A stretch of 55,873 bases of DNA, counting the filler, from Jimgerdemannia flammicorona (lineage: Eukaryota): the NCBI GenBank assembly GCA_003990765.1. It is 3 parts of 3 records of this genome, joined end to end, with 100 filler letters (N's around TTAATTAATTAA, not from the genome) between each part and the next. Parts side by side here need not be neighbours in the genome. Positions count along the whole stretch, not along the records: positions 37,320 to 55,873 come from RBNJ01002181.1; 2 more parts are not named here. One strand, 5' to 3'. Under the pieces are notes generated by a model. That model was given only the letters and a program-made list of their open reading frames with translations, was not told the DNA's origin and did not search any database. Below, in pieces: positions 18,661 through 55,873 of this stretch. Position 1 is the stretch's first letter; every line of letters starts with the position of its first letter. Both the position numbers and the translations under genes were made by a program.

Positions 18661-18730
<70 letters not shown>

Positions 18731-18732
<2 letters not shown>

Positions 18733-27790: not shown

Positions 27791-28097
27791 TCTACCTTCA
27801 CATAGACGAAAACTAAGTGTAAGCTAAGAGTTTTTGGTGCACAATATAGAAATGTAACTTCATCTCATTTCAGGACTATCAGTTTATTATATGATTCAAA
27901 AAAAGCGGGCCAACAAGAAAAGATGTCTCTAATGAAGTGCAAAGTTTATCACTACCGCACCTAAAGAAAACGGTAATTCTGGAGAGAGAGAGAAAAATTG
28001 GCCACGTGATTCCAACCACAAAAAGTAAAAGACTAAGCCTCTGTTATTACACAAACGTCACTAAGTCGCGAGATAGACTTCAGGGTACAGTGAGAAG

Positions 28098-28355
28098 GTG
28101 GAGTGTAAGGTTGTACCAGACGTGATCGTCCCCGACGTCATCTACACGGCTTCGAAAAGGAAGGTTGCTGAGCATGGCGGATTTAACGAGTACGGTTTTC
28201 ACGTTCCCATTATTGTGTTCAACCTGCCCCTTCAACACCAAGGGTTCTGTCCACCACGCAGATCGCTCCATCCATCCTCGCGCCCTTGGTTTGAAACCAC
28301 GTGAGTCGGAGGCGTCGTCATCGAAGGCACTGCGCCTCTTCCTCAATTGTTTTAG
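28098..28355 (+). pseudogene. C-terminal fragment of a type I phosphodiesterase/nucleotide pyrophosphatase (alkaline phosphatase superfamily), frameshifted
   Basis: VPDVIV...VIYTASKRKVAEHGGF...HVPIIVFN, then across frameshifts STTQIAPSIL / ALGLKP / VVIEGTAPLPQLF*. Recognised from family motif memory. Confidence 0.7.
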
Positions 28356-29579: not shown

Positions 29580-29706
29580 GAGGTAGAAGGCCTGAAGAAG
29601 TCGGGATGTATGCGTGAGAATCACGACAAAACAAATATAAATCGATGATGGACCAAAATTGTAGCCTACTCACCCAGTTCACGAAGTAAGCGGTGGTGTA
29701 TGACAT
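29580..29706 (-). pseudogene. Possible GH18 chitinase N-terminal remnant
   Basis: MSYTTAYFVNW, a GTGAGT...CAG intron, then AFY. Resembles the AYFVNWAIY start of fungal chitinases. No downstream domain seen. Confidence 0.35.
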
Positions 29707-30333
29707 GCCGCAGCATTTCTGTCGTTGTCATGGGGGTTCTGCCTGCAACGTGGTCGTCAATGCTGATGCTGACATGTCCGATGAAAATGTCTGTGTTCGG
29801 GGTGGTTGAAAGCTGCAAAATCACCCATTTGCCGAAGGATCGCTTTGATTGTCGGTTGATAAGTAGTGCGAGATAAAAGGAGTTAGCGGGCTGATGATGT
29901 GCTCCCGACCCTTGCCAAAACTCCTTCCATGTGCATCTGAAACAAACAGACATACCCACACTCCTCCCACCTGCAACCTACATACCTCAACCCCAAAGAC
30001 ATGGCCGAAGGTCCAGCAACAGAGGGCAGCAGCCGAATAGAGGATGTATTGTGACATCCAGGCTGATGAAGCCATGGTTGGACCAGGCATAGCAGATCTC
30101 GTCTCTGGTGAGTGGAATGAGCATGAACGTACCGCTTTCTGCTTCGCGCGGGGGCTTAGAGTTCTTGGATCGGTTTTCTTCCTCAAATAACAGTCATCCT
30201 TTGACACCCTTTCTGGGCCACCAGAATTATGACTCGGGACCGTCGTACCCTAATGTTTTTGTTGCCATATCCGTACTCAAGGAATTGCCATATCGGTACT
30301 TTTTGCGTCCATCACTCTTCAGCGCATATAAGA

Positions 30334-33300
30334 ATGGCCGGCAACCGCCGAAAGCTCGCCATTACCGTTGAGATCGCAAATGATCTCGTTTGTCCAGGTA
30401 CTTTATTTTTTTCCAAGCCTGTTCCTGTGAACTATCACCTGAATCTAAAGAGCATAATTTCAGAATACTGGCGTCGACCTTATACAAGTTGGGGCAATGT
30501 TAACCATTGGGATGAGGTCTACCAAAGTCATAACACGTCGGCAACAACAGCATCTTCCAGAGATGCGCTTTCGAAGGACTTAAGAGTTCTTATTAAAGCC
30601 CTCCCAGAAAAATCACAAGCCGCCAAGAAGGCTAATACATTCTTAAAGGTTGGTTATTTTCTTTGAAAAATTTGCTCTGTCATTAGCGAAGGACTACACC
30701 CTGCCTTGATCATCAACCGACCTGTTGCAGAAGGTGGCATTCAACAGCTGCTTGCTGGGGTTTGCACGATTTTCCCTGCTTGGGAAAGTCACACCCTGCC
30801 GTGATCATCGAACGACCTGTGAGAAAGGGTATTCAACAGCTGCTTGCTGGAGTTTGCGCAATTTTCCCTGCTAGGGAAAGTCTCCCTGTCTTGGACAACG
30901 TGCGACTGTTGTAGAAGGTAGCATTCCCCAGCTGCTTGTTGGGTTTTGCGCGATTTTCCCTGCTTGGGAAAGTCACACCCTGCCTGATCATCGGTTGACT
31001 GTGGCCTGTCGTAGAGGGTAGCATTCGCTGCTTGCTTGAGTGCGCGTTTTTCCCTGCTTGGGAAAGTCACACCCTGCCTGATCATCGGTTGACTGTGGCC
31101 TGTCGTAGAGGGTAGCATTCGCTGCTTGCTTGAGTGCGCGTTTTTCCCTGCTTGGGAAAGTCACACCTTTCATTGATGATCGAAGGACCTGGGTAGCATT
31201 CAACAGCTGCTTGCTGTAGTTTGCACAGTCTAGCCAACTTAGCATATCATGTGCTAATCCTCTACTACTTACTTAGACCACCAACAACTCCAGCCTCACA
31301 AGTCCGAATGTGACAAGCTGTGGCCGACTTATAAAAAAACCGAGGGTATTTGAGGTAAATTCTATCTCTTATTTTAGTAACTTTCTCTTACTGAGATCGC
31401 AGGACAAGGGAGAACAAAAAGGTCTGAATGATGTGAATTTAGTTTAGGAAAACTCATATAAATTTTCGTCACTTTCCTCTTTACAAATACAATAAAGGAG
31501 ACGTCACCGGTGGGTGCACTTTTTCTATTGTATGATTTTGAAATTTGTACTATCTAGATATATTCTAACTCGGTGGCGCTGTTTAGATGCACGTTAAAAG
31601 CCGTAAGAGGAAAGGAAACCAGCAAATGAAGGAGACCGAGCAGAAGGTCGAGCAGGAGACCGAGCAGGAGGCCGAGGAGAAAAAGGAAGAGGCGAACGAC
31701 ATAGAGAAAAATGTAATTGTGGAGATCGATCCCGTTTTTGCCGATATCATTCAGGCCATCAACGAAGTCCGCGCAATGGATTATGGACATCATAGGTATA
31801 TAATGGAAATGTTGATTGCTGCTTTGCTGATACTATATTTATTCTTAACCTCACCGTTCCGCAAGCCCGATGTTTTATCGGGTCATAGATTTGCGGTCTT
31901 CATTGCTTGAAGTATCTAATGTGCGCGCGGCGGACTTCGTCCAGAAAAAGTCACTGGAAGTTATAAGTATACCAGCGAAATTTGCAAAAGGAAATCAGTT
32001 CAATTCTCCCGAGCAAATAGCAAAGCTCGTCGATATTCTAATACAGGTTTGTTTTGCTTTAATAGCTTGTGCATATTATTACTGTGATAATACAGCGCGA
32101 TCAAGTGTGTTGACCCTTCGGTCCCTTGGCAGATCCCCGCGAATACGGTGGTTGAGATTTCTGGCTTGATCCGTGAGGAAGGGACGATCGGGATTCTGCG
32201 CCACCTGATGGAGAAGGTGAAGTTGGGGTATATTTTGACGCCATCACTGCCATTAGCCGAACTTTTAGAAGGAAAAAAAGTGGAGAGCGTAGCTGAAAGT
32301 CAGAACAAAATTGCGAACCAGCTGAAAGAGATTGATGGAAAGAACACTGATGTACAATGGGTCTTTCACGTAATCGACGAAATGTATGTTTCACTTTTCT
32401 TCCATTCTTTGTTCAGCTAAGAGTCATGAGTAATTTTTAAATCTTTCTACCAGAGCCCGAATAATACGATCAGACTTCCTTGTATCCAAGCTAACAGAAC
32501 GTGACGTAGATGTTCATTTCCTGAAGCCGTTCTATGGTGTGTTGTGGACGGAAGTGCATATAAATTTGTGAGTATTTAACATCTTAACGTATTATCCTGA
32601 TTACTTATAAGCTTACATTACAAACCTCGATCAGCGGTGAAGGAGAATCGCGGGCCTCGCGAAATCGGCGAGCTGGAAATGGTGGAGGTGATCACAATGA
32701 TTGGTTGTTTACTGTAAGTATTTCTTTCTTTTCTGCCATCTCTCTATAAATATACTAAATTTTATGTAAATAATTTGTTATTTAAAAAGAATTATGAAAT
32801 GGTTCCAGACAATATTCGAGGCCTTGAGCTCGGCGTGGTTGAGAATTCGGGTGTACGACACGTAGAAGGAACTGACAAGGCATTGTCTGATTGTGTTCGA
32901 GCAATCAAGACGGCCCGCGATCAATTGGCTCATATAATACGTATGGTCCAAAAAGAGTATGGATGCGATGCTCTACCAGATCTCCTTGTACGAGGCTTAA
33001 AGGCTATTTTCATCGTCGCGGAGCACGTGGTTGGGTTCCACGTCAAGGCTCATGTCGTCTATTTTCTCGGAGGAAACGTTTTCGCGGTCTCTGATCTTGG
33101 GAGTGAGAGGCTTCCGCATTCAGTGGAGACCATTCACGGAGCGCTACATATGTGTCAATTGATGATCAGAGTCAAGGTATTAAGGCTGTTGTATTGTTGT
33201 CACATATGGATTAAATAATTAAATTCGTTTCCACTCTTTCTAGAAATTAATAATTCACTCCAAGTTAATCATCAACGCCTTGCTCAAAGATGCACGGGAG

Positions 33301-33390
33301 ATGGGGAAAATCAACTCGGCTATAAATGATGTTAACAAAAAAAATCTGGGACCGATCATTTCAGAGATGAGGACGCCTAAGAAGAGGTGA
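30334..33390 (+). CDS. Multi-exon host gene, hypothetical protein with C-terminal restriction-endonuclease-like (PD-(D/E)XK-type) domain
   Basis: CpG-normal sequence with GT-AG introns (e.g. 30398-30463, 30649-31276). Exons include MAGNRRKLA..., GEGESRASRNRR...GDHNDWLF, ELGVVENSG...KALSD...KTARDQL, ending SEMRTPKKR* (33390). Exon phases are not all verified. Confidence 0.7.
30693..31230. repeat. Intronic tandem array, ~6 units of 92-94 bp
   Basis: Unit starts at ~30693, 30788, 30880, 30972, 31066 and 31160. Recurrent TTTTCCCTGCTTGGGAAAGTC. The units at 30972 and 31066 look identical. Confidence 0.9.
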
Positions 33391-33629
33391 ACATGACTAG
33401 AGGCATCCCTGTCTGTATCGGCGTCGACGCTTACTTTCTCGTGTGTGTGGGAATCTTTTCGGCTATAAGGTGGGTTTTTATTATTATCATATTTACCCAT
33501 GGATTGTAGTTGCTCTCTCGTTTTTGTTTCTTAATCTACTCAAGTGGGTATGTATACTAATTTATCTTCTATAACTCATACCAGCATTCAATGTATCTTA
33601 GCTAACATTTTGCAAATAAATATGATTTC

Positions 33630-35830
33630 TATAAAAATAAGTATGTAAGAATTTTAATTATTTGATAGTAAGTAATGTATATAATGATCTTTTGTACTGC
33701 TAATTGAGAACAAATCTCTATAGACTTTATTGTATAATTACTCTAAAACAAGAATAGAAAGAATGTAATTATTGTCTTTATAGATTATTTTAGCAAATAA
33801 GCTTACTTTATATCTATTGCTTTAACTGTAATAGTATTAGAAATTATCATATTCTTATTTGACAATATTTTTTACTATTATGGTCTTCTTAAGATTATTA
33901 TTAATAATTAAGATCTAGAATTTACCAACCATTTTTAGAAAACTCTACATGCATATCTTGGAATAAACCTTATACTATCTATAGCCTTTCACCTCAAAAC
34001 TAATGATCAAACTGAAAGAATGAACCAAACTCTAGAACAAATGCTAGAAAATTATGTTTTCTATAGACAAGATAATTGGTATAAATATCTCACCATAGTT
34101 GAGTTTACTTATAATAATAGTAAACAAGCCTCTCTTAGAATAACTCCATTCTTTACTAATATAGAATAAAATCTATACACTTTTCTGACTTTTATCAGAA
34201 CTACTAATGAATTCTCTACTATTAAAGCTATTAAAGAATTTCTACTCTAAATATATAACTTAAGCCAGATTGCAATTGAGAATTTATCTCAAGCTCAAGA
34301 GTAATAATTATAGTATATCAATCAGTACTACTGAGAAGAAACTCTTAATATTAGAGAAAAAGTTCTACTAGATATCTGAGGATACTGAGTTGATAATCTC
34401 AAGTATAGACTCTCTATAAAGCTGAATAGTAAATTCATTAGACTATTTAAAGTTATTGTATAAGTCTCTCTAACTTTCTACAAATTAGTGCTACCAGATA
34501 TCATCAAGATTCACTCTATCTTCAATGTCCAATATCTTAAGTAATATGTATAATGAAAATAATAATAAGCTATTTCTAAATTGAACTACAAAACCACCAA
34601 TATCTGTCATTATTAATGACTAGAAAGAATATAAAGTTGAACAAATCCTAAATAATATAGTTATAAGAACTATCCAGAATACTTTATCAAATAGAAAGAT
34701 TATTCAATCTATAATGTGACATGAGAACTCAAAACCAATCTCTAGAATACTACCAACTTAGTTTAAGAATATAATTCTTTAAACAACTAAAACTTGAATA
34801 CTCTAATACCTATTAGTCTCATACTATATATTACTCCTCTTGAATATTGTTAAAAGTACTCTTATTATTATTACAAATAAAATCAAAAATTCAGCAAGTT
34901 AAGACAAAAGGAAATACTAATTCTCTAGAAAATAACAAAACTGAAAGTCAGCCTATTCTCCCTATACTATTGATGGGAAATAAGATATAAATATTTAAGA
35001 AGATTCCTTAGAGAAAATTCTCCAGCAGTGAATGATATCAGAATTACTTCTAGTATATAATATTGAACATATGATCCTTTAATATATAAATTCAACATAT
35101 TAGACAACTATACTATAAGTATGCTACTTTCTAAAAAAAAAAAGATATTACTAGACTTTTGACCATTTAAATAATATAACAACACTAGACTAAATTAGAA
35201 GATCTTGATGAGAATACTAAAAGCTAAGAAGAGAAGAGTTGTAAGTATATAATCTTCAAGCTACCAAAATTATATGTTATCCTTAGAATAAATTTGGAAA
35301 TTATATACAAGATCATAAAGCTAAGTCAAACTGAAGTTACAGATCACAAAGCTAAGTCAACTCAAAGTCATAAAATATAAGACTTATAAAAATAAAATTT
35401 TACCAATCAAGACCAAAAGTATATATACTGAATATATAGATATATCAAAATAGAGAATCATAATAAACTAAATAAAAAATTACAACTCTCAAATATAAAC
35501 CAAATATAACTACTGAAATCTACAACTACATTTGTGCTGATATTTGAAATACTATTGTCAACTGAGCTACAGCTTCTCTACCCCTCATGAATATCCATAG
35601 TCTGGTACTTCTCTATTTTGTAGAAACTCAATAGAATGTTCTGAATATACTTAGTAAGATCTACTGAATCAGACAAATCTCAAGCTACTATCAGATTGAC
35701 TGTCTTCTAGAAGATATAGTTAGTCATCACTATGATATAGCTATTACTAAAATATCTCAATACTAGAAACTTATTATCTACAAATACTAAGAACTCTTTT
35801 ATATATATTACTTATTCTTTTGACTATAGA
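33630..35830 (+). mobile_element. Heavily AT-shifted family C Gypsy remnant: integrase, chromodomain, PPT and first ~590 bp of 3' LTR
   Basis: AFHLKTNDQTERMNQTLEQML and EFTYNNS (integrase); EYKVEQIL...YFIK*KDY (chromodomain). PPT aagaagagaagag then TGTAAG at 35240, homologous to 53082 onward. Confidence 0.88.
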
Positions 35831-35989
35831 TAAGATCATCTTTTAAAATCATTTAGCAGATAAATTAAAGTTTGAAGAAAATGATTTTTTGAAAAATTAT
35901 TTTTCTGTTAAAAATATATCTCAATTTGTTTAAAAATTTTTTTTTTTTTTACTAAAGATAGAATTATTATATAAAAAATTATTAGTAAT

Positions 35990-37079
35990 TTTTTTTTTAA
36001 AAAGCTATTATGATTTTAAAAGTTATAAACTTTTAAAATCTTGCCTCTAAATATAGATGCAAAACAGTCAAAGAGATATGAAGAACATACTACTATTATT
36101 ATTAGTTTTAATAGTATTTATATTATTATACTTCTCTTTATCTTAATAGTTCTTTTTATTACTTCTATATTATCAATACTTACCTCCATATTGTTGCTTA
36201 TTTTCACTACTCTCTCTATCATTCTCTCAGTAATAATAATAGTACTTCCTATATCTATATTTACTACAGTATTTATAGTAACTATTATATTTGATTAATT
36301 GACTACTCTTATATATGATTGTAATAACTATATTATATATTTCTGAGAGACCTCTTATAAGTGCTAGGACTTTATTTTCATTGCTGATACAATTCACAAA
36401 TATGCTGAGAGAATTCACTTAATTCACCAGATCATCAATATGATCAGCATACTTGTAGATACTCTCTTTGGGTTTCATTTATAGATTAAATAGCTGAGAT
36501 TTCAGATGAAATTGATTTGATATAGATGCTTACATATAATAATTATACAGAGCTTCTCACATATCATACACTATTATAGCATATATTATGAGCTTTGTTT
36601 GTGAGTTTGAAAGAGTAAAAGTAATCTCTTATAATATTTAGCAATTATTTGTAATATTGTAATTTTGAATTTATACTTGCAGTTTTGTATACTCTGCCAA
36701 GCTGTATTTATCAAGAAGATTCTATATATGGAATGCCCAAATGGTGTAATCTTTCCTGTTGAAGATTGGGATAGACCTCTTAGCTATGTTTATACTAACA
36801 ACCAAGACTATGTTTCTCATAACAGTGCCTGTCATTGCTAGAACACTTGCAATTGGCATATCTGTATTGCTAGAGTTGCTAGGCTGATCATCACTTGACA
36901 TTTTAGCATGTATTAAAGAGGTGTATTATTATAGCCACTTAGCACTAGCAGGCTCATACCCTTTGTTGTGAAAGAGGGCAATTTTATTGAACTTGTATAG
37001 GTCGCGTATACTGATGAATGAAGTAAAATTGATGGAATAGCGTAATCACGTGTAGACATATCGAGTTGCCATCCCAACA
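35990..37079 (-). mobile_element. Degenerate Ty1/Copia remnant: short LTR, PBS and gag
   Basis: LTR TGTTG...CAACA at 36964-37079 (alternative end 37114). PBS-like GGGTATGAGCC just inside. Gag peptides IPIFNRKDYTIWAFH and KVLALIRGLSEIYNIVIT. Left boundary approximate. Confidence 0.75.
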
Positions 37080-37219: not shown

Positions 37220-37319
37220 NNNNNNNNNNNNNNNNNNNNNNNNNNNNNNNNNNNNNNNNNNNNTTAATTAATTAANNNNNNNNNNNNNNNNNNNNNNNNN
37301 NNNNNNNNNNNNNNNNNNN
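37220..37319. other. Artificial contig-joining spacer (N-run with TTAATTAATTAA)
   Basis: Same 100-bp linker as 18561-18660. Confidence 0.97.
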
Positions 37320-37413: not shown

Positions 37414-38068
37414 ATTCTGGTCAAGTATGGTAGGACGTTTGATATCGTGAAGCCGCCGTCGCGAAGAAGTTGTTGTTTTACAAAAGGTAAGGTATATTAT
37501 GTAGCGAAACTTCAACTTTCCTCCAGTGTTACTCATGTATTACTACCACCCTCCATTCTTTTGAGCTGCCAAAACTCGTAAGCATACTTATTAGCTTTTA
37601 TTAAACCAATTGCCAGGGTATCATCACTATGTCGAGGCTACTGGGTCGATATTACAGATGGCCGAAGACCTAGACGTGAGCGCGAAACCTTGAAGACTAC
37701 TGTTGTGTCCTTGCGTTTCTCGACCTAAAAATCGATCATAACCGTTTCTGAGAACTCTCATCACCAACCAGACCGCCACAACTTTCAACATCTACGACAC
37801 CCTTCTCCAACGCCAAGCTACCACCTTCTTGGTATCCGAACCATCACCCGCCTCCTCTTCACCCCCACCACCCGAAGCCGTTGCACTTCTCCACACCCTC
37901 CGACTCCGCTATTTCACCCCTCGTGAGGTCGCAAACCTTATGGGCTTTCCGCCGGAATTCGGCTTCCCCGAATCAATTAACCTGAAACAGCGGTATCGCG
38001 TGCTTGGGAATAGCATTAGCGTGAGGGTCGTAGCAGAGTTGATGCGATATTTAATAAAGGAGGAATGA
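37414..38068 (+). CDS. TRDMT1: tRNA (cytosine-38-C5) methyltransferase DNMT2, last three exons (37414-37486, 37617-37675, 37772-38068); 5' part outside the contig
   Basis: Spliced in frame: [29 protein letters not shown] (DNMT2-specific CFTxxY motif) and [16 protein letters not shown]...QRYRVLGNS (motifs IX-X). Canonical splice sites. Confidence 0.93.
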
Positions 38069-44780: not shown

Positions 44781-47700
44781 GATGTAGCAGGGCATACTGG
44801 GCAATGTCCTTGCTGAGTTCAGGCTGTCCTAAAGCTGAGGCTCCACTAGTAGAGAGCCTCCAAGCTCTGAGGTTGAGGTGTGGCCATCTGGCTTCAGTAG
44901 AGGGATCTTGGAGATAGTTGATTCCTCTTCTTCCAGTAGGGTCAAGGGCTTCCATGAAGTTGGTGGCATCTTCTGCCCATCCTTGGCAGGTTGTATGTCT
45001 GATGAGAGCTAGGATGTCTTCTCCCAAATCATAGATCTTAAGGACTCTTTTTCCTGGCTTCCTGGTTTGGCTTTTTCGGATCTGACCTCTGTTGTCTCCT
45101 CTCTTTAAAGTGTGGACTGCAACATCATGACTGAGGTGAATCTTCTGATGTCTGCAGTCTTGGCAGTCAGGGTGTCTTCCATGGTTGCAATATCCCATTG
45201 CTTGGAAATGATCCCAGCTATTGATCTCTTGTTGCCTTGGGAATCGGTACCCATCTTGGTCATAAGTGGGTAGAAGAGTAGACAAGGGATATATTTCTGT
45301 CTGAGTGAAAAAGCCTTGCCCTCTGAATTGGCTTTGCAATTTGATAGTAACTTCTTGAAAGGTAGTTGACTGTACAAGTGTGTTTGAGAGTTCTGGTCTC
45401 TAGGGTCTCTGTCTCTCTTGTTGATCCAACAAATGACACTGATAGCAGTAGTCTTGGGGAGAGTGGAAGATTATTTAGTATGGGTACCTTCCAAGCTGAA
45501 AAGCTTTCTCCTGGTGAGTTTCTTTCTTGGGGATAATGGTGATTGTACTGGGTCCTTCCTCTGTATTCCAAGGATCATTATCTTCAGGTGGTGTCCAGCA
45601 AGGGTCATCCCAGGGAATGAGTTCAGGGACCTCTCCTTCCTCAGGTACTTCTTGCTCAGAAACTTCTTGGTCAGAGGTTTCTTCCTCCTCAGATGATTCT
45701 TGACCCCAAATTGCTTGTACTTCTGCAGCTTTGGCTGCAGGCATTTCTGGAACATGTCTGCATTTCTTTTTCTTCCTTCTGCATTCTGGGCAAGCTGTGC
45801 TAGGTGATTTCCTTGTTCCCATGATCTTGGAGGAGTGCTCAGAGCACTTGTGTCTCTTGAGGCAGATAGGGCATCCTTTGACATCTCCTACAATGGCTCC
45901 AATGGTGATGGGGATGGTGTTCTTAGCCCACACATTGTCTTCTGGTCTGTCATCCACAAGGTTAATTCGGGGATTGAGTCTGGGATCCTTTCCATCTTCA
46001 GATTCCTCCTCTTCTTCTGTAGTAGATTCCTCACTGCTAGCATATTCTTCCTAAATAGTGACCTTTTTCTTCTTCTTTGATTGCTCATAGCTGGTCAACT
46101 TAACTCTATACTTCTTGCCTCAGTAGTCAAACTTGAGTACTTGTTGGCCAATATCAACAACTGCATTCATTTACTTCATTCAGTTAGTGCCAAGAATCAT
46201 GTCATAGGTGATAGCTTCTGTGACAATAGCTTTGGGAATAGAGAACTGAATGTGTCCAAGAGAGATAATGATATTTTGTACTTCTCCAAGGGGTTGAGTT
46301 CAGGCTCCATCTGCTACTATGATGCTGAGGTTGGATAGTCCATCAATGGGCCATTGAAGAGTGTCCAGGAATCATTTGGCAATGACACAGACAGCTGCTC
46401 CTATGTCTATAAGGATTTTCACCTTTTTTCCTCCAATATCTCCATGTAGGTAGGTGCTGACATGTCTTTCAGCTGCCTGAACAGAGATGGGAACTGGTTC
46501 TTGCTGTAGGATTGGGACTCAGCCAGTGCTAGACCTGGTGGTTCTCAGCAATTTATTTCAGACTCTGGCTGATGTTAGTTGCAAGAACTGTAGGAGGGGA
46601 ACTTCTATCTTGGCCTCTTAAATCTTCTGTCAGGCTTCATTGTAAATATCTCTAGGTATGGTCTTTGGAGTGTACTTCTTCTTGGGCCTTGGTGTAGCAG
46701 GTTCCTGTTCTTCTTGTTCCATTTCTTCATCTTCTGATAGTAACTCATTTGTCTCAGGAACAAAAAGTGAGGGGGGTTTGGGGAGGTGTTTCTATCTGCT
46801 CCTCTTCATGATCTTCATCCTCTTCTCAGATAATTCTTCTGCTGATGTTCCTGGATGGCCTTCCCACAGGTCTCTTCCTTTTCTCCACTGGGTAGACTGT
46901 TTTCCAAGTGGTAACCTTGGTAGGGTATAAATCTAGGTCACTATAGTCTTCACTGTTGCTTGCTTCCTCAAAATCTTTAACAGGATGTGCTTCAGTCTTC
47001 TTGTACTGAGTGTCATTCCTTCAGTTTGGTGGTTTTGAGTCCCTTTGGTCACTTTTTTTATTATCACATTCAGTGGCATAGTGTCCAAATTATCCACAGT
47101 AGAAGTATTGAACTTGGGCTCTATCTCAGACAGGATATCTTCTTTCTTCTTAGTGATGACTTCTGTCATCTCTAGGTAGATAACCTTGGCTCCTCTGTGG
47201 TGGGTATCCTCTATTATCTTGGTAACTCTGATTTTCATGTGTAGTGAGTTTTTCAATTTGTTCAACCAATTGGTCTAACTTGGAGCTGAGGTCTTAGATT
47301 TCACTTCTGTCCTTCTTTCCTTCCTTGGCTGGTCTTCTTTCCTTGGACCTTTCTTGTCCTTGAAGGAGTCCTTGCAGGGCTTTGACCAGGATATCTTCTT
47401 TATCTTCCTTCTTGTCATGATCACTCCAGGTAGTTCCTTAACTGACATCAAAGAATCCTTGGGCTGTATCTACTTACTCTTTTGACCTTCTGATGCCTAG
47501 GGTGCAGACATGCTGGGCAATATTCAGGGGAATTCCATTCATGAAGGTCATTGGACATATGATGTCTTGGTTGGTGGCATTGAAACCAGCAGAATGCATT
47601 CTCTTCTGGATTCTTATGAAGAAGGCTCTGGGTGATTCTCCAAGATTTATCTTCATTCCTATAATAGATTCCTGAGCCTTGTGGTGGGTTTTATTTCCTG

Positions 47701-48507
47701 CATACTTTTCAATGAGCCAGTGGACCATGGCCTCATATTCTAGCTCATCAGATATTGCTGCTTATATCTGTCTTGCTAGTTCTGAATCTTGGTTGTTTAC
47801 TGTTTGATAGAAAATTCCTCTGGCTGATTCCCTGAGCTGAGCTTTGTAAATGGCAATTTTTCTTTCATCTGAGAGATTCCTCAAGGCTGCGATTCCTTCG
47901 ATTCCATAAAGGAATTCTCTGGGGTCTTCCTCTGAGTATCCTGCAAAGGTTGGCAATAAGGTGGCCATTTTGTCATCACTTTCTTCTGATTCTAGTTCTG
48001 GTTCAGATCCTGATTCTAATTCACTTTCCAAGCTGTCACTGGAGATGGGGGTGCTTGGGTATCTTGAGGATAGTGTCCTAGACCTTGGGTGAAGTAGAAT
48101 AGATCTAGGTATTCTTGTAGGAGCTACTTCCAGCTCTGCAAGGAGTTGTGGTAAAGGTTCCATTAGTGAAATTGGTGGGGCTGATCTGGGGCATCTGGCT
48201 GTAAGGTCTTGTATTCATGTGATAAGGTCTTCTAGTTCTTATACAAGTTCTCCAAAATCTCTAGCAGGGCTGCTTGTATTGTCTGGTTGATCTGATTGGA
48301 GATTTCAGACTATACTGCCTTCTGGTTCTGGTTGGGATTCTTCTGATGCTGAATAATTAGCAAGTCTTGAGGTGATTACTTCTCTTCCTGTCTAGATGCT
48401 AGTGATAACTGGTTTTCCTGTAGTAGCAGAGATTGGTGTTGTATCAAATATATCCAGTTTGACTGTGGGTTCTTGTGAGCTGAAAAGTTACATTGATTTT
48501 AAAATCT

Positions 48508-48524
48508 TCCCAGTTGAGCCCCCA
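48508..48524 (-). promoter_or_regulatory. Primer binding site of B1, tRNA-Pro type
   Basis: TGGGGGCTCAACTGGGA 2 nt after the LTR. Compare the MLV tRNA-Pro PBS TGGGGGCTCGTCCGGGAT; two of three differences fit CpG decay. Confidence 0.75.
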
Positions 48525-48526
48525 AA

Positions 48527-49831
48527 TGTAACATGCTGGCTCAATGGAGGCAAATTACAGGATTGGAGGTTGATGTAGTTTGGCTTGAGCCCCCAGTTAC
48601 TTTGTCAAAAAGCAACAAAATGTTCTAAGATTCCTGAGGTCCTTGATGTTTAGTGGTATAATAGTCAAAGCTGGATATCTGCAAGTGATTCTGGCGATTT
48701 CCTTATTGGGACAGTTCTCTGGATGTAGCAGTGATTTGTATGTGAATGGGTTTTCTTCTTGAGTCAACTGGAAATGTCACAATTTGTGTAGTACAACAAT
48801 CTCTATATATGACAGTCTAGCAATTTAGCAGTTCTCTTTCTTGGGCGATGGGTGATCTCTGCATAGCACAACAATCTCCAAAAGTATGCAATTTCTGGTG
48901 AATGACCCAAATTAGTTCACTGGGAATTATACTGGCACAGTTTCTTCTATACTGGGCTCTCTGGGAACAACAGATAACTCAGATTGGTATAGATAGCTTG
49001 AATGGCACAGATTCTTCTGAATCGGCTTCAACTGGGAATACTACTTGGATGGCATGGATTCCTCCTGTATTAGCAGGCTCTTCTAGGGATACAACAGCAT
49101 GGATTCTTCCTGAATCAGTGAGATTCTCTGGAAATGCAGATAACTCGGAAGTGGTGGCTTTAACTGGAAATATGGCAGATAACTTAAAAATGGCAGGTGA
49201 TGCAGATTCTCTCTGAATCAGCAGCTCTAACTGGGAAACAGGATGGTGGCTTAGAAAGGGTCTCTTGGCAAAGTTGCATCAAAGACTGGCTTCATTTACA
49301 CAAATAGATCACTGTGAAGTTGCATCAGAAACTGGCTTGTGCAAGGTGGCTTTCTCTTAGGCAGCAGAAATCTTCAGGCATATCTGGCAAGCAAACCAAT
49401 AATTCCAAAGGTGGCAAAGTTCTTCCTTGAACTTAGGCAGCAAACTCAAATTCTTCAGGCTTATCTAGCAAGTGAACCAATCAATCTTTGTATTGGAAAG
49501 TGAACCAGAGTGGGGAAAAGGGACCAATGCTCAATCTTTAGAGGCTTCTTTGGTTTACTTCAACTTTTCAGACTGAGGTTTATTCACTCTTGTCTCTGGG
49601 GTAATTTATATATTGTGGTTTCTATATGGCTAACTATAGATTTGCTACTTATGGCAAGTTATGCAGGTTTGGTATGGGTGTGCAGGTCCTGTACAGATGT
49701 ACCTTATCTGGTAGGTTGGCTATTTATAGCAATGGTTGCTAGTTACTATGCTGTGTATTTATGTCATCTGGCTAATTATTCACATTATCCAACTAAGGTA
49801 TAATTTGGGTGGTATGCCTTGGCTCATCACA
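48527..49831 (-). repeat. Family B 5' LTR of B1
   Basis: Direct repeat of 39670-40964, followed on the minus strand by the PBS. Confidence 0.93.
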
Positions 49832-52800
49832 ATACAAATTACTTACAGATATCCAGCTTTGACTATTATACCACTAAATACTAAGAATATTTTATTACTT
49901 TTAATAAAGTAACTAGAGGCTCAAGCCAAACTACATCAATCTCTAATCTTGTAATTTGCCTCTATTGAGCCAGACATGTTATATTTGAGGGTTCAACTGA
50001 GAAGATTTCAAATTAATGTAACTTTTTAGCTTATAAGAACCCATAGTCAAACTGGATATATTTGATACAACATCAATCTCTATTACCATAGGAGCACCAG
50101 TTATTACCAGCATCTAGACAGAAAGAGAAGTAATCACCTCAAGACTTATTAACTACTCAGTATTAGAAGAATCTCAACCAGAAACTAGTATGGTCCAAAA
50201 TCTTCAACCAGATCAACCAGACAATACAAGTGGCCCTGCTGGACAACTTGAAGAACTTGTATAAGAACTAGAAGACCTCATTACACAGGCCTGAGATCTT
50301 ACAGCCAGATACTCTATATCAGTCCCACCAATCTCACTCATTGAACCTTTATCACCAGCCCATGCAGAATTGAAGATAGCTTCTATAAGAATACCTAGGC
50401 TCATTCCACTTCATCTAAGGTCCAGAACACCATCCTCAAGGTACCCAAGCACCCCCATCTCCAGTGATAGTTCAGAAAGTAAATCAGAGTCAAAATCTGA
50501 ATCAAAATCCAGACTAGAACCAGAATCAGAAGAAAGTGATGATAAAATGTCTACCTTATTATCAACCTTTGCAGGATATCCAGAGAAAGATCCCAGAGAA
50601 TTTCTTGATAGAATTGAAGGAATCACAGCCCTGAGAAATCTCTCAGATAAAAGAAAAATCACTATCTATAAGGCTTAGCTCAGAGAACCAGCCAGAGGAA
50701 TTTTCCACTGAATAGCAAATGACTCATATTCAGAACTGGTGAGACAGATATAAGCAGCAGTATCTTATGAGCTAGAATATATAGCCATAGTTTACTACCT
50801 CATCAAAAAATATACAGGAAATGAAATCTACTACAAAGCTTAAGAATTTATCATAGAGATGAAGATGAATCTTAGAGAATCACCTAGAGCTTTCTTTATA
50901 AGAATCCAGAAGAGAATGCATATCACCAGGTTCAATGCTATCAACCAGTACATTATAGGTCCAATAATTTTCATGAATAGGATTCCTCTGAACAATATCT
51001 AGCATATCTATACCCTAGGAATTAGAAGGTCTGAAGAATAAGTAGATACAGCCCAAGGATTCTTTGATGTCAGACAAGGAACTATCTGGAGTGATCATGA
51101 CAAAAAAGAAGATAAAGAAGACATTCTGATCAAAGCCCTACAAGGACTCCTTCAAGGACAAGAGAGATCTGAGGAAAGAAGACCAGCCAAAGAAGGGAAG
51201 AAGAACAAGAGTAAAATCTAAGACCTTAGCTCTAAATTGGACCAATTGATTAGGTAGATTGAAAAACTCACCATACACGAAAATTGGAGTTACCAAGACA
51301 ACAGAAGATACCTGTCCTAGAGAAGTCAAGGTTATCCACCAAGAGATAGCAGGAGCTATCAGCAAGAAAAAAGAAGATACTCTGTCCAAAACAGAGCCTA
51401 AGTTCAATGCTTCTATTGTAGATAATTTGGACACTATACTACTGAATGTAATAACAAAAGAAGTGACCAAAGGGACTCAGAACCACCTAACTGAAGGAAT
51501 GACACTCAGTATAAGAAGACTGAAGCCCATCCTGTTGAAGATTTTGAAGAAGCAAGCAATAGTGAAAACTACAGTAACCTAGACTTATACTCTACCAAGG
51601 TTACTATCTGGAAAACAGTTTACCTAGCAGAAAAAAGAAAGAGATCTATAGGAAGGCCATCCAGAAATATCAGCAGAAGAATCATCCAAGAAGACAATAA
51701 AGAACATAAAGAAGAGCAGGTAGAAATATCTCTCTGGACTCCCTCACCTTTTGTCCCTGAGACAAATGAGCTGCTATCAGAAGATGAAGAAATAGAACAG
51801 GAAGAACAGAAGCCTGCTACCCCAAAGCCTAAGAAGAAATACACCCTGAAGACCATGCCCAGAGATATCTATAATAAAGCCTGGTAGAAGATTTAAGAAG
51901 CCAAGATAGAGGTTCCCCTTCTGCAGTTTCTACAACTAATACTAGCTGGAGTCTGAAACAAATTACTGAGGACCACTAGGTCTAGCACTGGTCAAGTTTC
52001 AATTCCACAATAAGAGCCAGCTCCCATTCCTATCCAAGCTGCAGAAAGATATGTCAGTACTTACTTATATAGAGATATTAGAGGACAAAAGGCAAAAATC
52101 CTCATAGATACAGAAGCAGCTATCTATATCATTACCAAATAGTTCCTGGATACCCTCTAATGGCCCATTTATGGATTATCCAACCTTAGTATCAAAGTAG
52201 CAGATGGAGCCTAGACTCAACCTCTTGGAGAAGTATGAAACATCACTATCTCTCTTAGACACATTCAGTTCTCCATTTCAAAAGCTATTATCACTGAAGC
52301 TGTCACCTATGACATGATCTTTGGGATCAACTGGATGAAGAAAATGAATGCAGTTGTTGATATTGATCAATAAGTACTCAAGTTTGACTACTGGGGCAAG
52401 AAGTATAGAGTTAAGATGACCAGTTATGAGCAATTGAAGAAGAAGAAGAAGATCACTATCCAAAAAGAATATGCTAGTAGTAAAAAGTCTACTACAGAGG
52501 AAGAAGAAGAATCTGAAGATGGAAATGATCTCAGACTCAATCTCAGGATCAACCTAGTGGATGACAGACCAGAAGACAATGTATGGGCCAAGAACACTGT
52601 CTCTGTTATCATTAGAGCCATTGTAGGAGAAATCAAAGGATGCCCCATCTGCCTCAAGAGATACAAGTGCTCTGAGCACTCCTCCAAGATCATTGAAATA
52701 AGGAATTCGCCTAGTACAGCCTGCCCAGAGTGCAGAAAGAAGAAGAAGAAATGCAGACATATTCTAGAAACATCTGCAGCTGAAGCTACAGAAGTATAAG

Positions 52801-53081
52801 CAATTTGGGATCAAGAATCATCTGAAGAAGAAGAAGTTCCTAACCAAGAAGTTCTTAAACAAGAAGCCTCTGAAGAAGAAGAGGTCCCTGAATTCATTCC
52901 CTGAGATAATCCTTGCTGGATACCACCTGAAGACAATGACTCTTAGAATATGGAAGAAGGACCCAGCACAATCCCCATTATTCTCAAGAAAGAAACTCAC
53001 TAAGAGAAGACATTTTGGCTAGGAAGATATCTACACCAAATGGTCTTTCACTCTCCTCAAGACTACTGCTATCAGTGCTAT

Positions 53082-55146
53082 TGTAAGCGCACAACCTCCA
53101 AGCCACCGAAATTACACGTCACCCTCTGAACAAACCACTGAAATCACACGCGACCTCCGAACAAATCTGGAAATCACCTGCTTGATCACGAAGCTGAGTC
53201 AAACTGAAGTCACAGCGCACAAAGCTGAGTCAATACAAAGTCACGGAACACAAGATCTACACAAATGGAACCTTACCAATCAGGACCAAATGTATATATA
53301 CTGAGCACCGAGAAGCATCGAATCAGAGAACCAAAACAAACAACAACCACAACTTCCAAACACACAAACATGACCACTGAGATCTACAACCGCATCCACG
53401 CTGACATTTGGAATGCCATTGTCAACCGAGCCACACCCCCTCTGCTCCTCATGAATATCCATAGCCTGGCACCCCTCTACTTCATGGAAGCCCGATGGAA
53501 CACCCTGAACATGCTTAGCGAGGCCCACCGAATCGGACAAATCTCAAGCTACTACCAGATCGGCTGCCTCCTGGAAGACATGGTCGAACACCACCATAAT
53601 ACCGACATTACCCAGATGTCTCAACACCAGAAGCTCATCGCCCGCAAACATCGAGAACTCTTCTATGAGTACAATACCTTTATTCCCTGCCTCCGAGTTA
53701 CTACCAGCAAAATGGTTACTACCCTGTCCTATGGCCAAATCGATGATATGATACAAGAAATCAACCACAAGTACCTCGAATATGTCGAAACCACAGACAG
53801 AACCTTCCCGCACCCTGATGACCATATCCTACAAATGCCTCAAGTTGGATACGCCATGAAGGATGTCTACGATATAATCCACTTTGATGAAGACGAAGCA
53901 AAAGACAATGATCCCTCTGACGCCGATATGACCTCTAGCCAAGAATCTCTGCCAACCCTGATCACTCTGCCAACCTTGTCGATGAACTTACAACAGTTCA
54001 TAACTACATATGAGACTTATTGGGACAATGACCACTGGCACGAATACCAACCCGCGTTCACCCCCGATTACTTCAATTACAATGAAGAGACCAGAGAACA
54101 CAACCTGTACCTTCAGACAACCCTCGAGATCGAACCAACCACTCCACCACCCGAGTACAAGCAACATGAACCACAGCCACCAGCATACTATAACCCCGCA
54201 ACTCATAGTGCTGTAACCTATAGAAGGTATGCAGACAGCGAATCCGATGAAAGCGAAGACAGTACACCCATTCTTCGCCCACCAACACCTTATCCAGCAT
54301 ACGAAACAGACGATGCTATTCTGTGGGATGGAGATGAAGTTCCAATGTATTATTACCTCAGCGAACAAGGAGAAGTAATCCATGAACCATTATTCCTAGA
54401 CGACTACTTCATCAGAGATGATGCAATCGATGGTGATGTCATCGAAGACTACCCAGATAGTGCCTAAACCTATAAATAGCCTAGCAGTCATAGTATAGAT
54501 AGATTAGCCTTGTATGACATGACTGTGAACTGACTCAGCAGTCAGACGATCTCTTGACATGTCAGATCACACTTGTACTACGTGACTGCATTCTGACTCA
54601 GCAAGGCACTTAGTGCTACATCCATATTTAGCATAGTCCAGATAGCCCCTCACTAGTATAAATACCCCCTCCCCCAGACCTCAGAATCTCAGACTTGAAC
54701 AATCTGAACACAACTCCTGAGCACTTCCCCACAATACCCCTTCACACAAATACTCCTAGAATAACAATATCATGAATAGCAAATAAACCTATTCCATAAC
54801 CCACAAATCACTCTTAAGTAAATCTGCTCCCTATTAGGTCCTACTCCTAACCCCATCACGAAATTTCCTAATTGGGTATTGTCTGCAGCGATACGCCAAT
54901 TCAACTAAGCTGGTCTTAGTTTCTTGAACTTCCTGAAATACGGAAAAATCCTGAACATCCAGAACTAGTCCAGAAAAGGACTTTGGTTGAGATGTCAACC
55001 TGATCTTGAAATCAATAAGCGTAGAGGACGTACTCCATATGAAATTGATCTTGACCATAAGAAAACGGTCTTCCAGAACATCCAGAACTTCCAGAAAATC
55101 CTTCCAGAACTACGTAACGGTCACCCTAAAAAGTAACCCTCTTACA
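53082..55146 (+). repeat. Family C LTR (2065 bp) containing a protein-coding ORF
   Basis: TGTAAG...CTTACA inverted termini. Start confirmed by the PPT-adjacent copy at 35240; end confirmed by the PBS and by the copy ending at 19644. TATAAATA at 54471 and 54657; AATAAA at ~54782. Confidence 0.92.
53265..54467 (+). CDS. Intact 400-aa LTR-encoded accessory protein of unknown function (predicted helical N-terminal core, acidic/Pro/Tyr-rich C-terminus)
   Basis: Longest ORF in the window and CpG-retaining. Degenerate homologs at ~35390-35830 and 18733-18972. Motif similarity to ORF3 of families A and B. Confidence 0.88.
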   Translation: MEPYQSGPNVYILSTEKHRIREPKQTTTTTSKHTNMTTEIYNRIHADIWNAIVNRATPPLLLMNIHSLAPLYFMEARWNTLNMLSEAHRIGQISSYYQIGCLLEDMVEHHHNTDITQMSQHQKLIARKHRELFYEYNTFIPCLRVTTSKMVTTLSYGQIDDMIQEINHKYLEYVETTDRTFPHPDDHILQMPQVGYAMKDVYDIIHFDEDEAKDNDPSDADMTSSQESLPTLITLPTLSMNLQQFITTYETYWDNDHWHEYQPAFTPDYFNYNEETREHNLYLQTTLEIEPTTPPPEYKQHEPQPPAYYNPATHSAVTYRRYADSESDESEDSTPILRPPTPYPAYETDDAILWDGDEVPMYYYLSEQGEVIHEPLFLDDYFIRDDAIDGDVIEDYPDSA

Positions 55147-55149
55147 ACT

Positions 55150-55160
55150 TGGTAGCAGCG
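55150..55160 (+). promoter_or_regulatory. Primer binding site, tRNA-iMet type
   Basis: TGGTAGCAGCG 3 nt after the LTR, complementary to a ...GCTACCA 3' end typical of eukaryotic initiator tRNAs (cf. Ty1 PBS TGGTAGCGCC). Confidence 0.8.
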
Positions 55161-55873
55161 GTTTACAATCCAATTCCGCTTCAAGATGCTTCCTCACTCC
55201 ACTACAAACCCTTCTGAGAATTCCTACAAGTTGGTATAAAGCCCAACCTCTGAACTGGAATTTATTCTGAACTATCTGACAATCTGGAGAGAATTGAACC
55301 TGATGTATAAGGACAATTTGACCTCCACATCTGTAACAAGTAGGATAAACTTCATTCAAAGAAAGAAGTACTCAAGTTAAACCAGCAAATAGGCAAAACT
55401 CTATTCACTGAACTCCTTGCACTACACCCAGCAAGTCAAGATGAAGAAGGTCTTATTGAAGCCTTCTTTACTCTTCTCAACAAGAGTTTTGTCAGCTCCA
55501 CAAATCCGAGCGACCTAGGACAACCAGCAGCAGTCTTTCTAGCCTTAGTTCCTCACGAAGCCCAAGCCTCTGTAGCCAAGTGGCTCAACTCTACCAACTT
55601 TCACTGCACCAGGACTAAGACCGCATTATACTACTGATTCCAGAACAGCAAGGCCCACCATATTCTTAAGGAAGAAGCAAGAGAAACCCTTCATCAACTA
55701 CCTGACCCTGAACCTGAAGCAGGCCCTGCTACAACCCTACCTGAATCTGAAACCAATACCGAACCTGAACTTGACTTTGAATTAAGTCCATCTGAAATCA
55801 GATATATAACTAATTCTGTCTACTTTGACACCGAGCAAACCCAATTACACGGGGACCAAACCGAAGAAGAGGA

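Follow-up and report, generated by a model that had tools for sequence, protein, structure and literature searches.

An intact open reading frame within the U3 region of a long terminal repeat of Jimgerdemannia flammicorona: a candidate accessory gene of a Ty3/Gypsy-type retrotransposon

Can a long terminal repeat (LTR) of a fungal retrotransposon carry a protein-coding gene of its own? To our knowledge, LTR-internal accessory genes are known only from complex retroviruses such as MMTV with its sag gene, the nef and foamy-virus tas/bel genes overlapping U3. The question is raised by an open reading frame (ORF) in the genome of the Endogonales fungus Jimgerdemannia flammicorona (assembly GCA_003990765.1). 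The window, i.e. the whole stretch of DNA analyzed here, comprises 55,873 nucleotides and is made up of three contigs, with N44-TTAATTAATTAA-N44 linkers between them (18561-18660 and 37220-37319). The principal features described below lie on the + strand. The reading we favor, with the balance of probability about even, is that the U3 region in the LTR of a Ty3/Gypsy-type element houses a genuine accessory gene coding for a protein.

The complete 5' LTR spans 53082-55146 (2,065 bp), and its boundaries are backed by five independent lines of evidence: its termini, a primer-binding site, a copy adjacent to a polypurine tract, an insertion breakpoint and outside contigs. The termini are of the TG...CA type with short inverted repeats (TGTAAG at 53082, CTTACA at 55141-55146). 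The primer-binding-site-like TGGTAGCAGCGG (55149-55160) lies 2 bases past the LTR end at CTTACA and presumably matches the 3' end of initiator tRNA-Met; scans of the window itself found no tRNA gene and no Rfam match. The LTR copy at 35240 shows the same TGTAAG start directly after the purine tract AAGCTAAGAAGAGAAGAG-T, and in three contigs of sequencing run X2 the purine tract AAAGCTAAGAAGGGGAGAG immediately precedes the position of 53082. The host of the insertion is an unrelated flanking Gypsy element (49837-53077), whose family homology breaks off 4 bases before 53082; it matches 45437-48690 in inverted orientation at 82% identity, and the latter continues past the equivalent of the insertion breakpoint. 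At the other end, X19 and X20 contigs part from the window sequence at 55144-55146, and the LTR copy ending at 19644 has a flank that differs from the sequence after 55146. The true 2-kb LTR proposed in an earlier, sequence-only reading of this locus is therefore upheld by termini, primer-binding site, copies, breakpoint and outside contigs together.

Two tandem repeats occupy the 5' end of U3. The outer one (53099-53165) has a 32-bp unit in 2.1 copies and varies in copy number among family members, with contig joints that skip 31 or 37 bases and a 31-base gap in the copy at 35240. The inner one (53187-53253) has a 31-bp unit in 2.2 copies, each unit holding a TGAGTCA (53195, 53226), and is a candidate upstream activating element for the ORF. 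We take TGA(G/C)TCA to be a bZIP (Gcn4/AP-1-type) site; TGAGTCA is not enriched across the window, with 16 occurrences against 13.8 expected. The candidate TATA box of an ORF-specific promoter is TATATATA (53293-53300), which lies ~70 bases upstream of the ATG of Met36, would have this role by position, and is retained in the AT-rich LTR copy at 35240. From reading these motifs, an ORF-specific promoter at the LTR 5' end is possible.

A second set of signals is situated downstream of the ORF. Two TGACTCA sites (54531, 54594) occur in a ~63-bp repeat (54531-54600) upstream of the main TATA box; one contig joint skips 63 bases here (54529-54593), and both sites are kept in another LTR copy, at 19035 and 19098. 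That TATA box, TATAAATA (54657-54664), is where U3 ends. It presumably serves as core promoter for the genomic (gag-pol) RNA, and the same LTR copy retains it, at 19160. The sole AATAAA of the LTR (54782-54787) presumably acts as poly(A) signal where R ends. Both TATAAATA and AATAAA are thus downstream of the ORF. In the LTR-like end of another Gypsy family (~18485), TATAAATACCCCCC has a core similar to TATAAATA. In run X19, which is RNA only by guess, one contig end is joined to an adapter at 54709/54710; this hints weakly at a transcript start ~46 bases downstream of TATAAATA. In X19 and X20, with the same caveat as to their nature, depth peaks at 54760-54985, is near zero across most of the ORF and is absent at 53856-54307.

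The ORF (P0001) runs from 53265 to 54467, encodes 400 aa from ATG to TAA and is open for 412 codons from stop to stop. It begins after the LTR start (53082) and ends before the TATA box (54657), and the earlier claim of an intact 400-aa ORF wholly in U3, upstream of both the TATA box and AATAAA (54782), was confirmed. Since the ORF lies entirely within the LTR, each transposition event places it in both LTRs. No open frame in the window is longer, the runner-up having 213 codons. When the LTR was shuffled 2,000 times with its dinucleotides preserved, the longest open frame had a mean of 93 codons and a maximum of 224, versus 412. The remaining two frames of the same stretch contain 14 and 27 stops, and base composition within the ORF is codon-periodic, with G counts of 107, 42 and 54 at codon positions 1, 2 and 3. 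The LTR + strand is composed of 697 A, 593 C, 443 T and 332 G; fewer stop codons are expected of such an A/C-rich, T/G-poor strand.

The conserved form of the protein probably starts at Met36 (53370) and has 365 aa, judging from several sequence comparisons. A relative from the protein searches, P0003, begins at Met36. All three family differences listed upstream of 53370 alter the amino acid, and two of the three fall at codon position 2. Among the best-supported family differences listed within 53370-54467, none of 11 falls at codon position 2 and five are silent on their own; a sixth (54392) is silent only jointly with 54390, changing TTA to CTC, as in the copy at 18730-18969.

ORF sequence recurs in LTR copies at positions other than the 5' LTR, in line with the interpretation offered by the sequence-only reading. 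A polypurine tract (35221-35239) is followed by a 3' LTR copy of which the initial ~580 bases are present, the whole feature spanning 35221-35817 and showing heavy C>T / G>A mutation; this copy holds ORF codons 1-139 (35392-35817), with stops. The 3' part of another LTR copy (18730-19644) corresponds to LTR positions 1143-2065 at 87.7% identity, and its codons 321-400 are open and in frame. These C-terminal 80 codons (18730-18969) thus reside in a copy whose end meets flanking sequence without a primer-binding site. The end of this copy is as originally described; its start at 18730 is where the contig start cuts it, rather than a genomic truncation. A single element spanning 19645-35239, with 18730-19644 and 35240-35817 as its LTRs, was also considered; against it, position 19644 is not followed by a primer-binding site, and a protease-like stretch begins just 130 bases on.

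In order to look for coding constraint, the 80 codons at 54225-54464 were compared with those at 18730-18969. The pair differs by 40 nucleotides and 18 amino acids, with no stop. Neutral placement of the same 40 changes predicts 25.7 +/- 2.4 amino-acid differences versus the 18 observed (P=0.0011); the expectation is 24.0 when dinucleotide context is kept (P=0.004) and 23.6 when trinucleotide context is kept (P=0.003). Sequence comparison thus suggests that the ORF is under modest but significant coding constraint, the test covering 80 of 400 codons in a single pair of copies and the effect being modest in size (18 vs ~24). The dN/dS comparison among copies that had been proposed at the outset came out in the same direction: the Nei-Gojobori value for this 80-codon pair is 0.26, a figure that overstates constraint because of transition bias. 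Between the two copies, divergence is 16.7% in the ORF part versus 6.3% and 11% in the non-coding parts of the LTR.

Homologue searches for near and for shorter relatives, and exhaustive searches of representatives free of any length limit (1.84 billion representatives, 5.8 billion clusters), returned just two relatives, both partial. P0002 has 247 aa, is 67% identical and aligns to residues 150-399; its alignment includes two 2-residue in-frame gaps, and it stops one residue short of the end of the window ORF. In a neutral simulation to 66% identity, the frame stayed open in 2.5% of 3,000 trials. P0003 has 128 aa at 89% identity. Both relatives carry an ascertainment bias, because gene callers report open frames. 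No annotated protein of the organism's own proteome (included in the searched collections; P0005) matches the ORF, and scans of JGI metagenome contigs, viral contigs and prokaryote genome contigs yielded no relatives.

The predicted protein has two dissimilar parts. The N-terminal part (about residues 36-176) appears helical in structure models: AlphaFold2 with a 3-row alignment of the whole protein placed low-confidence helices in residues 31-176 (pLDDT 31.4), and AlphaFold on residues 36-184 alone placed them, again with low confidence, in residues 38-180 (pLDDT 44.8). The C-terminal half is very acidic, Pro/Tyr-rich and probably disordered; residues 181-400 contain 49 D+E versus 8 K+R, with a pI of 4.05. 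A domain already described in such LTRs was looked for, and none was matched in Pfam, PDB or the very large protein searches. Pfam at E up to 10 gave a single chance-level match to RAMP (E=1) and no known LTR-borne domain, a search of PDB sequences with the same E limit returned one match at chance level, and the ESM Atlas, queried with the whole protein and with residues 30-200, gave nothing scoring at least 0.9. An F-box lead, with Atlas scores of 0.83 and 0.79 that fall within the chance range, was dropped because Pfam has no F-box (PF00646) match even at E up to 10. PPEY and PPAY motifs were rejected as late-domain-like signals, since P0002 does not conserve them. A tblastn search of the ORF against the window recovered its own LTR copies alone, with no paralogy to gag or pol and no kinship to the acidic tail that follows the integrase in the Gypsy family of contig 1.

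The element itself is assigned to Gypsy indirectly, by way of a nearby integrase and a weak gag-like match. The Gypsy-like integrase core (33708-34124) is located 1.1 kb upstream of the 3' LTR copy and shares 38.7% identity over 137 aa with the contig-1 Gypsy integrase. The internal region starts at 55149 and, to the window end at 55873, has a gag-like open frame; in tblastx, 55560-55733 is weakly similar (36% over 58 aa, E 3e-7) to 10913-11086, part of the gag region in another Gypsy family. No RT in the window is attributable to this family with certainty. The window continues 727 bases past the 5' LTR and contains no full element of the family, and 5'-type and 3'-type LTR copies are seen only separately. 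It had been stated that the gag already has stops; the visible gag-like frame is indeed interrupted, by one in-frame stop only, a TGA at 55635.

We propose that each LTR would be a self-contained gene cassette. The TGAGTCA-bearing 31-bp repeats (53195, 53226) and TATATATA (53293) would drive a transcript from ~53330, with translation from Met36 (53370) to 54467. This mRNA would continue across the promoter belonging to the LTR itself and receive its poly(A) tail at AATAAA (54782). Genomic gag-pol RNA would have a separate start, ~50 bases past TATAAATA (54657), under its own TGACTCA pair. The product would most likely act in trans for the element, either activating transcription or counteracting silencing or hypermutation by the host, and would in this resemble the retroviral accessory genes located in U3 or overlapping it; this proposed function draws support from no fold, domain or motif in the searches described above. 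The most extended form of the proposal, which we regard as unlikely, is that the LTR is an autonomous gene (bZIP-site/TATA promoter, 365-400 aa ORF, LTR poly(A)), that a full element has two expressed copies and solo LTRs stay working genes, and that the acidic orphan works in trans, switching on LTRs of the family or dampening silencing / C-to-T hypermutation by the host and so helping the family to very high copy number as a fungal counterpart of retroviral U3 accessory genes. More than 77% of the host genome has been reported to consist of repeats.

Three other explanations have to be weighed. A non-functional ORF, left over or arisen by chance in a U3 rich in A/C and poor in T/G and open only because the copy is young, has a low though not negligible probability in our judgment. 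The base composition of the LTR + strand depresses stop-codon frequency, the protein is an orphan with one half of low complexity, probably disordered, and no confident fold, the ORF part outpaces the non-coding LTR parts in divergence between copies, and the remaining ORF copies in the window are partial or have stops. Against these points, the 412-codon frame exceeds all 2,000 shuffles (maximum 224), amino-acid changes fall below neutral expectation (P 0.001-0.004), and the 67%-identity relative P0002 has kept its frame, with in-frame indels and a nearly identical end.

The constraint result also bears on a different origin for the ORF, as a host or other mobile-element gene that was transduced into U3 and is hitch-hiking there, its constraint inherited from an earlier life. 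LTR retrotransposons are known to capture foreign sequence, and the ORF resembles neither gag nor pol of the window; captured ORFs are the subject of papers on rotifer and orchid elements. The constraint, however, is seen between two LTR copies, so that it acted with the gene already in the LTR, and no cellular homologue was found among 1.84 billion representatives and 5.8 billion clusters, a collection that included the host's annotated proteins and in which two short fragments matched. We consider such a transduction improbable. Equally slight, in our estimate, is the chance that genomic RNA starts upstream of the ORF, at ~53330, and that the ORF is the first cistron ('ORF0') of a very long R/leader and no separate U3 gene. 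This arrangement would suit the TGAGTCA repeats and TATATATA at the LTR 5' end and the position of the lone AATAAA downstream of the ORF. It is at odds with the stronger promoter-like module (2x TGACTCA + TATAAATA) downstream of the ORF, which is conserved in the copy at 18730-19644, and with the TATAAATA-like core, TATAAATACCCCCC, in the other family's LTR-like end (~18485). An R of ~1.5 kb would be exceptional, and gag-pol expression would require reinitiation after an ORF of 365-400 codons.

The favored reading, a U3 accessory gene, has its closest parallels among retroviruses. MMTV sag is a superantigen gene inside the LTR U3, and the window ORF resembles it as a complete sense accessory ORF in U3, and thus in both LTRs, outside gag-pol. 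The two differ in that there is no sequence similarity between them (Pfam at E up to 10 gave RAMP by chance), the host here is a fungus and the carrier is of Ty3/Gypsy type without a visible env, and sag is a type II membrane protein, whereas the window ORF product is acidic and cytosolic-looking. HIV nef and foamy-virus tas/bel, accessory or regulatory genes whose products act in trans, are located at the element's 3' end and overlap U3, and foamy viruses express tas/bel from a second, internal promoter. They are alike in being 3'-end accessory genes that reach U3, and the foamy internal promoter parallels the one proposed here. They merely overlap U3, however, whereas the window ORF and its putative promoter lie wholly inside the LTR, and Pfam and PDB searches revealed no homology between them and the window ORF.

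Retrotransposons offer further comparisons. Extra ORFs have been described in LTR retrotransposons including plant Ogre/Tat and bdelloid rotifer elements (PMC5408684), and Botrytis Boty has the extra ORF brtn of BcGypsy1 (PMC8365987). These ORFs too are lineage-specific extras on Ty3/Gypsy-type elements, with unknown or regulatory function. They are not known to lie anywhere but between the LTRs, in the internal region, whereas the window ORF is inside the LTR, downstream of the LTR start defined by the polypurine tract, and so is not an internal additional ORF; it also has no sequence similarity beyond its own family. Cassandra has an LTR with a 5S rRNA-like promoter and, like other LTR elements with a functional unit inside the LTR, is similar in having an independent transcription unit in the LTR that is duplicated per insertion; it differs as a Pol III RNA-gene-like module of a non-autonomous element, where here there is a 1.2-kb protein-coding ORF. 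In open-access full-text literature, no protein gene inside a Ty3/Gypsy retrotransposon LTR was found reported, which does not prove absence, and a further lead proved to be a study of U3 variation without an LTR ORF.

An LTR-borne gene alters the arithmetic of selfish spread, with two copies per insertion and one left behind in a solo LTR. If expressed, it would give a direct handle on host manipulation by a retrotransposon family in an early-diverging fungus that lives in symbiosis with plants and has a genome unusually rich in repeats. There is also a consequence for annotation practice: repeat masking conceals such genes, and the organism's deposited proteome contains no copy of this one. 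The LTR family is multi-copy, as 4,567 contigs from one soil run align to the stretch at 85% identity or more.

The LTR at 53082-55146 (+ strand, 2,065 bp) begins with TGTAAG and ends with CTTACA, and its limits, placed earlier from the sequence alone, were borne out by these termini, a purine tract, a primer-binding-site-like sequence, the edge of a nested insertion and contigs of other sequencing runs. The 2,065-bp unit has two further matches within the window, at 18729-19644 (LTR positions 1143-2065; 87.7% identity) and 35286-35802 (LTR positions 78-585; 72% identity). In a global alignment, the copy at 35240 opens with the identical TGTAAG straight after the purine tract AAGCTAAGAAGAGAAGAG-T, whose position is that expected of a polypurine tract; the copy is accordingly a 3' LTR. 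On the left side, AAAGCTAAGAAGGGGAGAG immediately precedes 53082 in three contigs of run X2, and the flank at 49837-53077 is an inverted copy, 82% identical, of 45437-48690, which belongs to another Gypsy family. Since the latter copy continues beyond the point equivalent to the 53077 edge, the LTR element is a nested insertion and the edge is the LTR start. On the right side, the primer-binding-site-like TGGTAGCAGCGG begins 2 bases after the CTTACA end at 55146 and presumably resembles the complement of an initiator tRNA-Met 3' end; the copy ending at 19644 runs into a different flank, and contigs of runs X19 and X20 part from the window at 55144-55146. The LTR holds a TATA box (TATAAATA) at 54657, downstream of the ORF, and a single AATAAA at 54782. 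With the usual layout, these positions set U3 at about 53082-54700, with the ORF wholly within it and upstream of both signals, as had been proposed.

From ATG to TAA, the ORF at 53265-54467 (+) comprises 400 codons (412 from stop to stop). No open frame of the 55.9-kb window is longer; the second in length has 213 codons. A and C predominate on the + strand of the LTR (A 697, C 593, T 443, G 332), a composition that favours open frames; even so, when the LTR was shuffled 2,000 times with dinucleotides preserved, the longest frame averaged 93 codons and reached at most 224. The remaining two frames across the same stretch contain 14 and 27 stops, and base use in the ORF is codon-periodic. The sequence observation is confirmed, and the interpretation placed on it is partly supported: the best explanation, to which we give about an even chance, is that U3 carries the ORF as a genuine accessory gene.

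Coding constraint was assessed on 80 codons common to two copies, which show 40 nucleotide differences (35 transitions), 18 amino-acid differences and no stops, whereas random placement of the same directed changes on matching bases predicts 25.7 +/- 2.4 amino-acid differences (P=0.0011). Because mutation is context-dependent and third positions are C-rich, the test was repeated with dinucleotide or trinucleotide context kept, giving 24.0 (P=0.004) and 23.6 (P=0.003) expected against the 18 observed. The dN/dS comparison suggested by the sequence-only reading gave 0.26 (Nei-Gojobori) for this one pair, a value that favours constraint but overstates it given the transition bias. The shortfall of amino-acid changes relative to neutrality is real, if modest; an effect of this size would follow from some of the divergence having built up neutrally once the copies had inserted. 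Counting against constraint, the ORF part diverges by 16.7% between two window copies, and the non-coding parts of the same copies by 6.3% (54468-54690) and 11% (54691-55146). An exhaustive HMMER search over 1.84 billion representatives and two word-indexed searches of 5.8 billion clusters returned two partial relatives only. P0002 (247 aa, 67% identity) spans residues 150-399; its alignment has two in-frame gaps of 2 residues each, and it stops one residue before the ORF does. P0003 (128 aa, 89% identity) covers residues 36-163. Under simulated neutral decay to 66% identity, the frame stays open in 2.5% of 3,000 simulations (indels not counted), an argument weakened by the fact that both relatives were found because they are open frames. 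The evidence for constraint thus comprises 80 codons and two fragmentary relatives.

Weighed on this evidence, a non-functional open frame is unlikely: the A/C-rich composition and the higher divergence of the ORF part speak for it, and the shuffled sequences and the shortfall of amino-acid changes speak against it. We consider it less probable still that the ORF is a captured gene hitch-hiking in the element, a reading that the same shortfall speaks against. Equally improbable is an ORF0 lying within a long leader or R, for which a start of transcription ahead of the ORF would have to be reconciled with the TATA box downstream of it.

The conserved protein of the putative accessory gene may be shorter than the frame. 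P0003 begins at Met36, the pattern of differences between runs shifts there, and loose ends of contigs from two runs bear on the stretch ahead of it; together these suggest that translation starts at Met36 (53370; 365 aa) and that 53265-53369 is a leader, open by chance. Among the best-supported run differences (14 inside the ORF, from 40 listed of 442), all three upstream of Met36 alter the amino acid, two of them at codon position 2, and none of the 11 downstream falls at codon position 2. Five of these 11 are synonymous singly; that at 54392 is synonymous only together with 54390 (TTA to CTC), and the window copy at 18730-18969 shows this combined state. The X19 loose end from 53308 carries an in-frame TGA upstream of Met36, and that of X1 before 53339 appears, when read by eye, 2 bases shorter than the window in this region.

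Ahead of the ORF lie a tandem repeat of period 32 (53099-53165) and one of period 31 (53187-53253) with TGAGTCA in each unit (53195 and 53226), followed by TATATATA at 53293. Copy number of the period-32 repeat differs among family members, and U3 enhancer repeats often vary in this way. A TGACTCA pair (54531 and 54594) lies ahead of the main TATAAATA, in a ~63-bp repeat that is absent from one X2 contig. The 2,065 bases of the LTR thus hold four TGA(G/C)TCA-type heptamers, which we take to be bZIP (Gcn4/AP-1-type) sites; across the whole window the heptamer is not enriched (16 found, 13.8 expected). From motifs only, we infer that the ORF and the genomic RNA may each have a promoter of their own in the LTR, the two being built along similar lines. 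The accessory gene would probably have its own promoter and share the LTR poly(A) site, its transcript running on to the single AATAAA. In an X19 contig, sequencing-adapter sequence abuts position 54710, which lies 46 bases past the TATA box; with X19 being RNA by guess, this is a weak hint of the genomic-RNA start.

A well-annotated domain was sought in the ORF protein, with chance-level results only: a RAMP match in Pfam (E up to 10) and a single match among PDB sequences. The ESM Atlas gave nothing of at least 0.9. AlphaFold2 modelled the whole protein, from a 3-row alignment, at a pLDDT of 31.4 and residues 36-184 by themselves at 44.8, with helices predicted at residues 31-176 and 38-180, respectively, and mostly coil past the N-terminal part of the full-length model. 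Residues 181-400 are strongly acidic (D+E 49, K+R 8, pI 4.05) and have a high content of Pro (24) and Tyr (20); blocks conserved between the ORF protein (P0001) and P0002 include FPHPDDHILQMPQV, LQQFITTYETYW, YQPAFTPDYFNYNE and PPTPYPAY. A tail of this kind, acidic and dotted with hydrophobic residues, would suit an activation domain. Under the favoured explanation, the product would serve the element in trans.

Retroviral genes in or overlapping U3 include MMTV sag, HIV nef and foamy tas/bel, the last with its own internal promoter; these are the closest analogues by position, but share no sequence similarity with the ORF. Extra ORFs of plant Ogre/Tat elements sit between the LTRs. As far as the available source text goes, so do those of bdelloid rotifer Ty3/Gypsy elements (PMC5408684) and Botrytis brtn (PMC8365987), in contrast to the ORF here, inside an LTR. 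The 5S-like unit in the Cassandra LTR is, in the text available, an RNA module, whereas the present LTR carries a protein-coding ORF. The text at hand on Podospora 'crapaud' describes U3 variation and no LTR ORF (PMC10787394), and full-text searches of open-access papers brought up no description of a protein gene inside a Ty3/Gypsy LTR.

Past the LTR, an open reading in frame three resembles gag; by tblastx it matches, at 36% over 58 aa (E 3e-7), the gag region of a different family. The statement that gag already has stops is narrowed to one in-frame TGA, at 55635, in the part visible in the window. The core of a Gypsy-like integrase is encoded 1.1 kb ahead of the 3'-LTR copy (35240), and with the gag-like match this makes a Ty3/Gypsy assignment likely, if indirect.

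The three contigs of the window are joined by two 100-base linkers, each made up of 44 N, TTAATTAATTAA and a further 44 N; they occupy 18561-18660 and 37220-37319 and are flanked by homopolymer runs (poly-C to 18560, poly-A at 18661-18730 and to 37219), and features are not to be read across these joins. By tblastn, ORF residues 1-139 lie at 35392-35817 in the polypurine-tract-adjacent copy (55% identity, with stops) and residues 321-400 at 18730-18969 (77.5% identity, open), in a copy whose end abuts flank without a primer-binding site; both ORF halves are therefore present in non-5' LTRs. The window contains no full element that would show the ORF in both of its LTRs. The latter copy (18730-19644) starts at a contig edge (18730, after poly-A), so that the assembly, and not a truncation in the genome, accounts for its absent 5' part; nor is this copy part of the first contig's Gypsy element. 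At 19776-21474 (+), only 130 bases past 19644, come stretches resembling protease, RT and RNase H from another Gypsy family, with neither primer-binding site nor gag between; this arrangement reflects either a nested insertion or an element of the LTR's own family that has suffered a deletion.

The first contig is filled by two ~80% identical Gypsy copies in opposite orientation (1527-9794, -; 10051-18560, +), of another family, with PR, RT, RNase H and integrase. Near 18485, in the LTR-like end of this family, the core TATAAATACCCCCC resembles the TATA region of the studied LTR. Between integrase and purine tract (~18167-18180), a decayed acidic coding region (16036-18180, +) ends in ...NFQINEDIDF and could represent either an extra ORF or pol extended at its C terminus; tblastn detected no similarity between it and the LTR ORF. 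Elsewhere, 22000-28000 (+) is purine-rich with an extreme GC skew (+0.39 to +0.56; GC 45-49%), its sequence at ~23920 resembles the beginning of a non-LTR (LINE-type) endonuclease (...SLNVNGL...) and has many stops, and a 94-bp tandem repeat occupies 30696-31224 (5.7 copies, the inner 2.4 copies 99% identical).

The third contig starts within the final exon of a gene for a DNMT2/TRDMT1-type tRNA cytosine-5 methyltransferase; the exon sequence at 37742-38065 (+) shows the C-terminal motifs of Pfam DNA_methylase. Its final 58 aa (37892-38065) match, at 100% identity, a partial protein in NCBI that is named for Jimgerdemannia flammicorona; the fungal matches ranking next are from Mucoromycota. 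Parts of the LTR are present in 20 runs of 14 studies, mostly soil and root metagenomes, with 4,567 contigs of one soil run aligned to the LTR stretch. This abundance agrees with a review's account of Jimgerdemannia genomes reaching ~240 Mb (PMC10386755), for which the review cites Chang et al. 2019.

Relative to the intact copy, the LTR copy at 35240-35817 shows 83 C>T and 39 G>A changes, with 6 T>C and 5 A>G. On both strands, some 40-44% of the C and G residues are mutated, at 51-58% in CpA, CpC and CpG and 15% in CpT contexts. This hypermutation looks RIP-like, in a Mucoromycota fungus; to our knowledge, RIP has been described only in Dikarya. The surrounding 34001-36000 is AT-rich, with a GC content of 24.5%.
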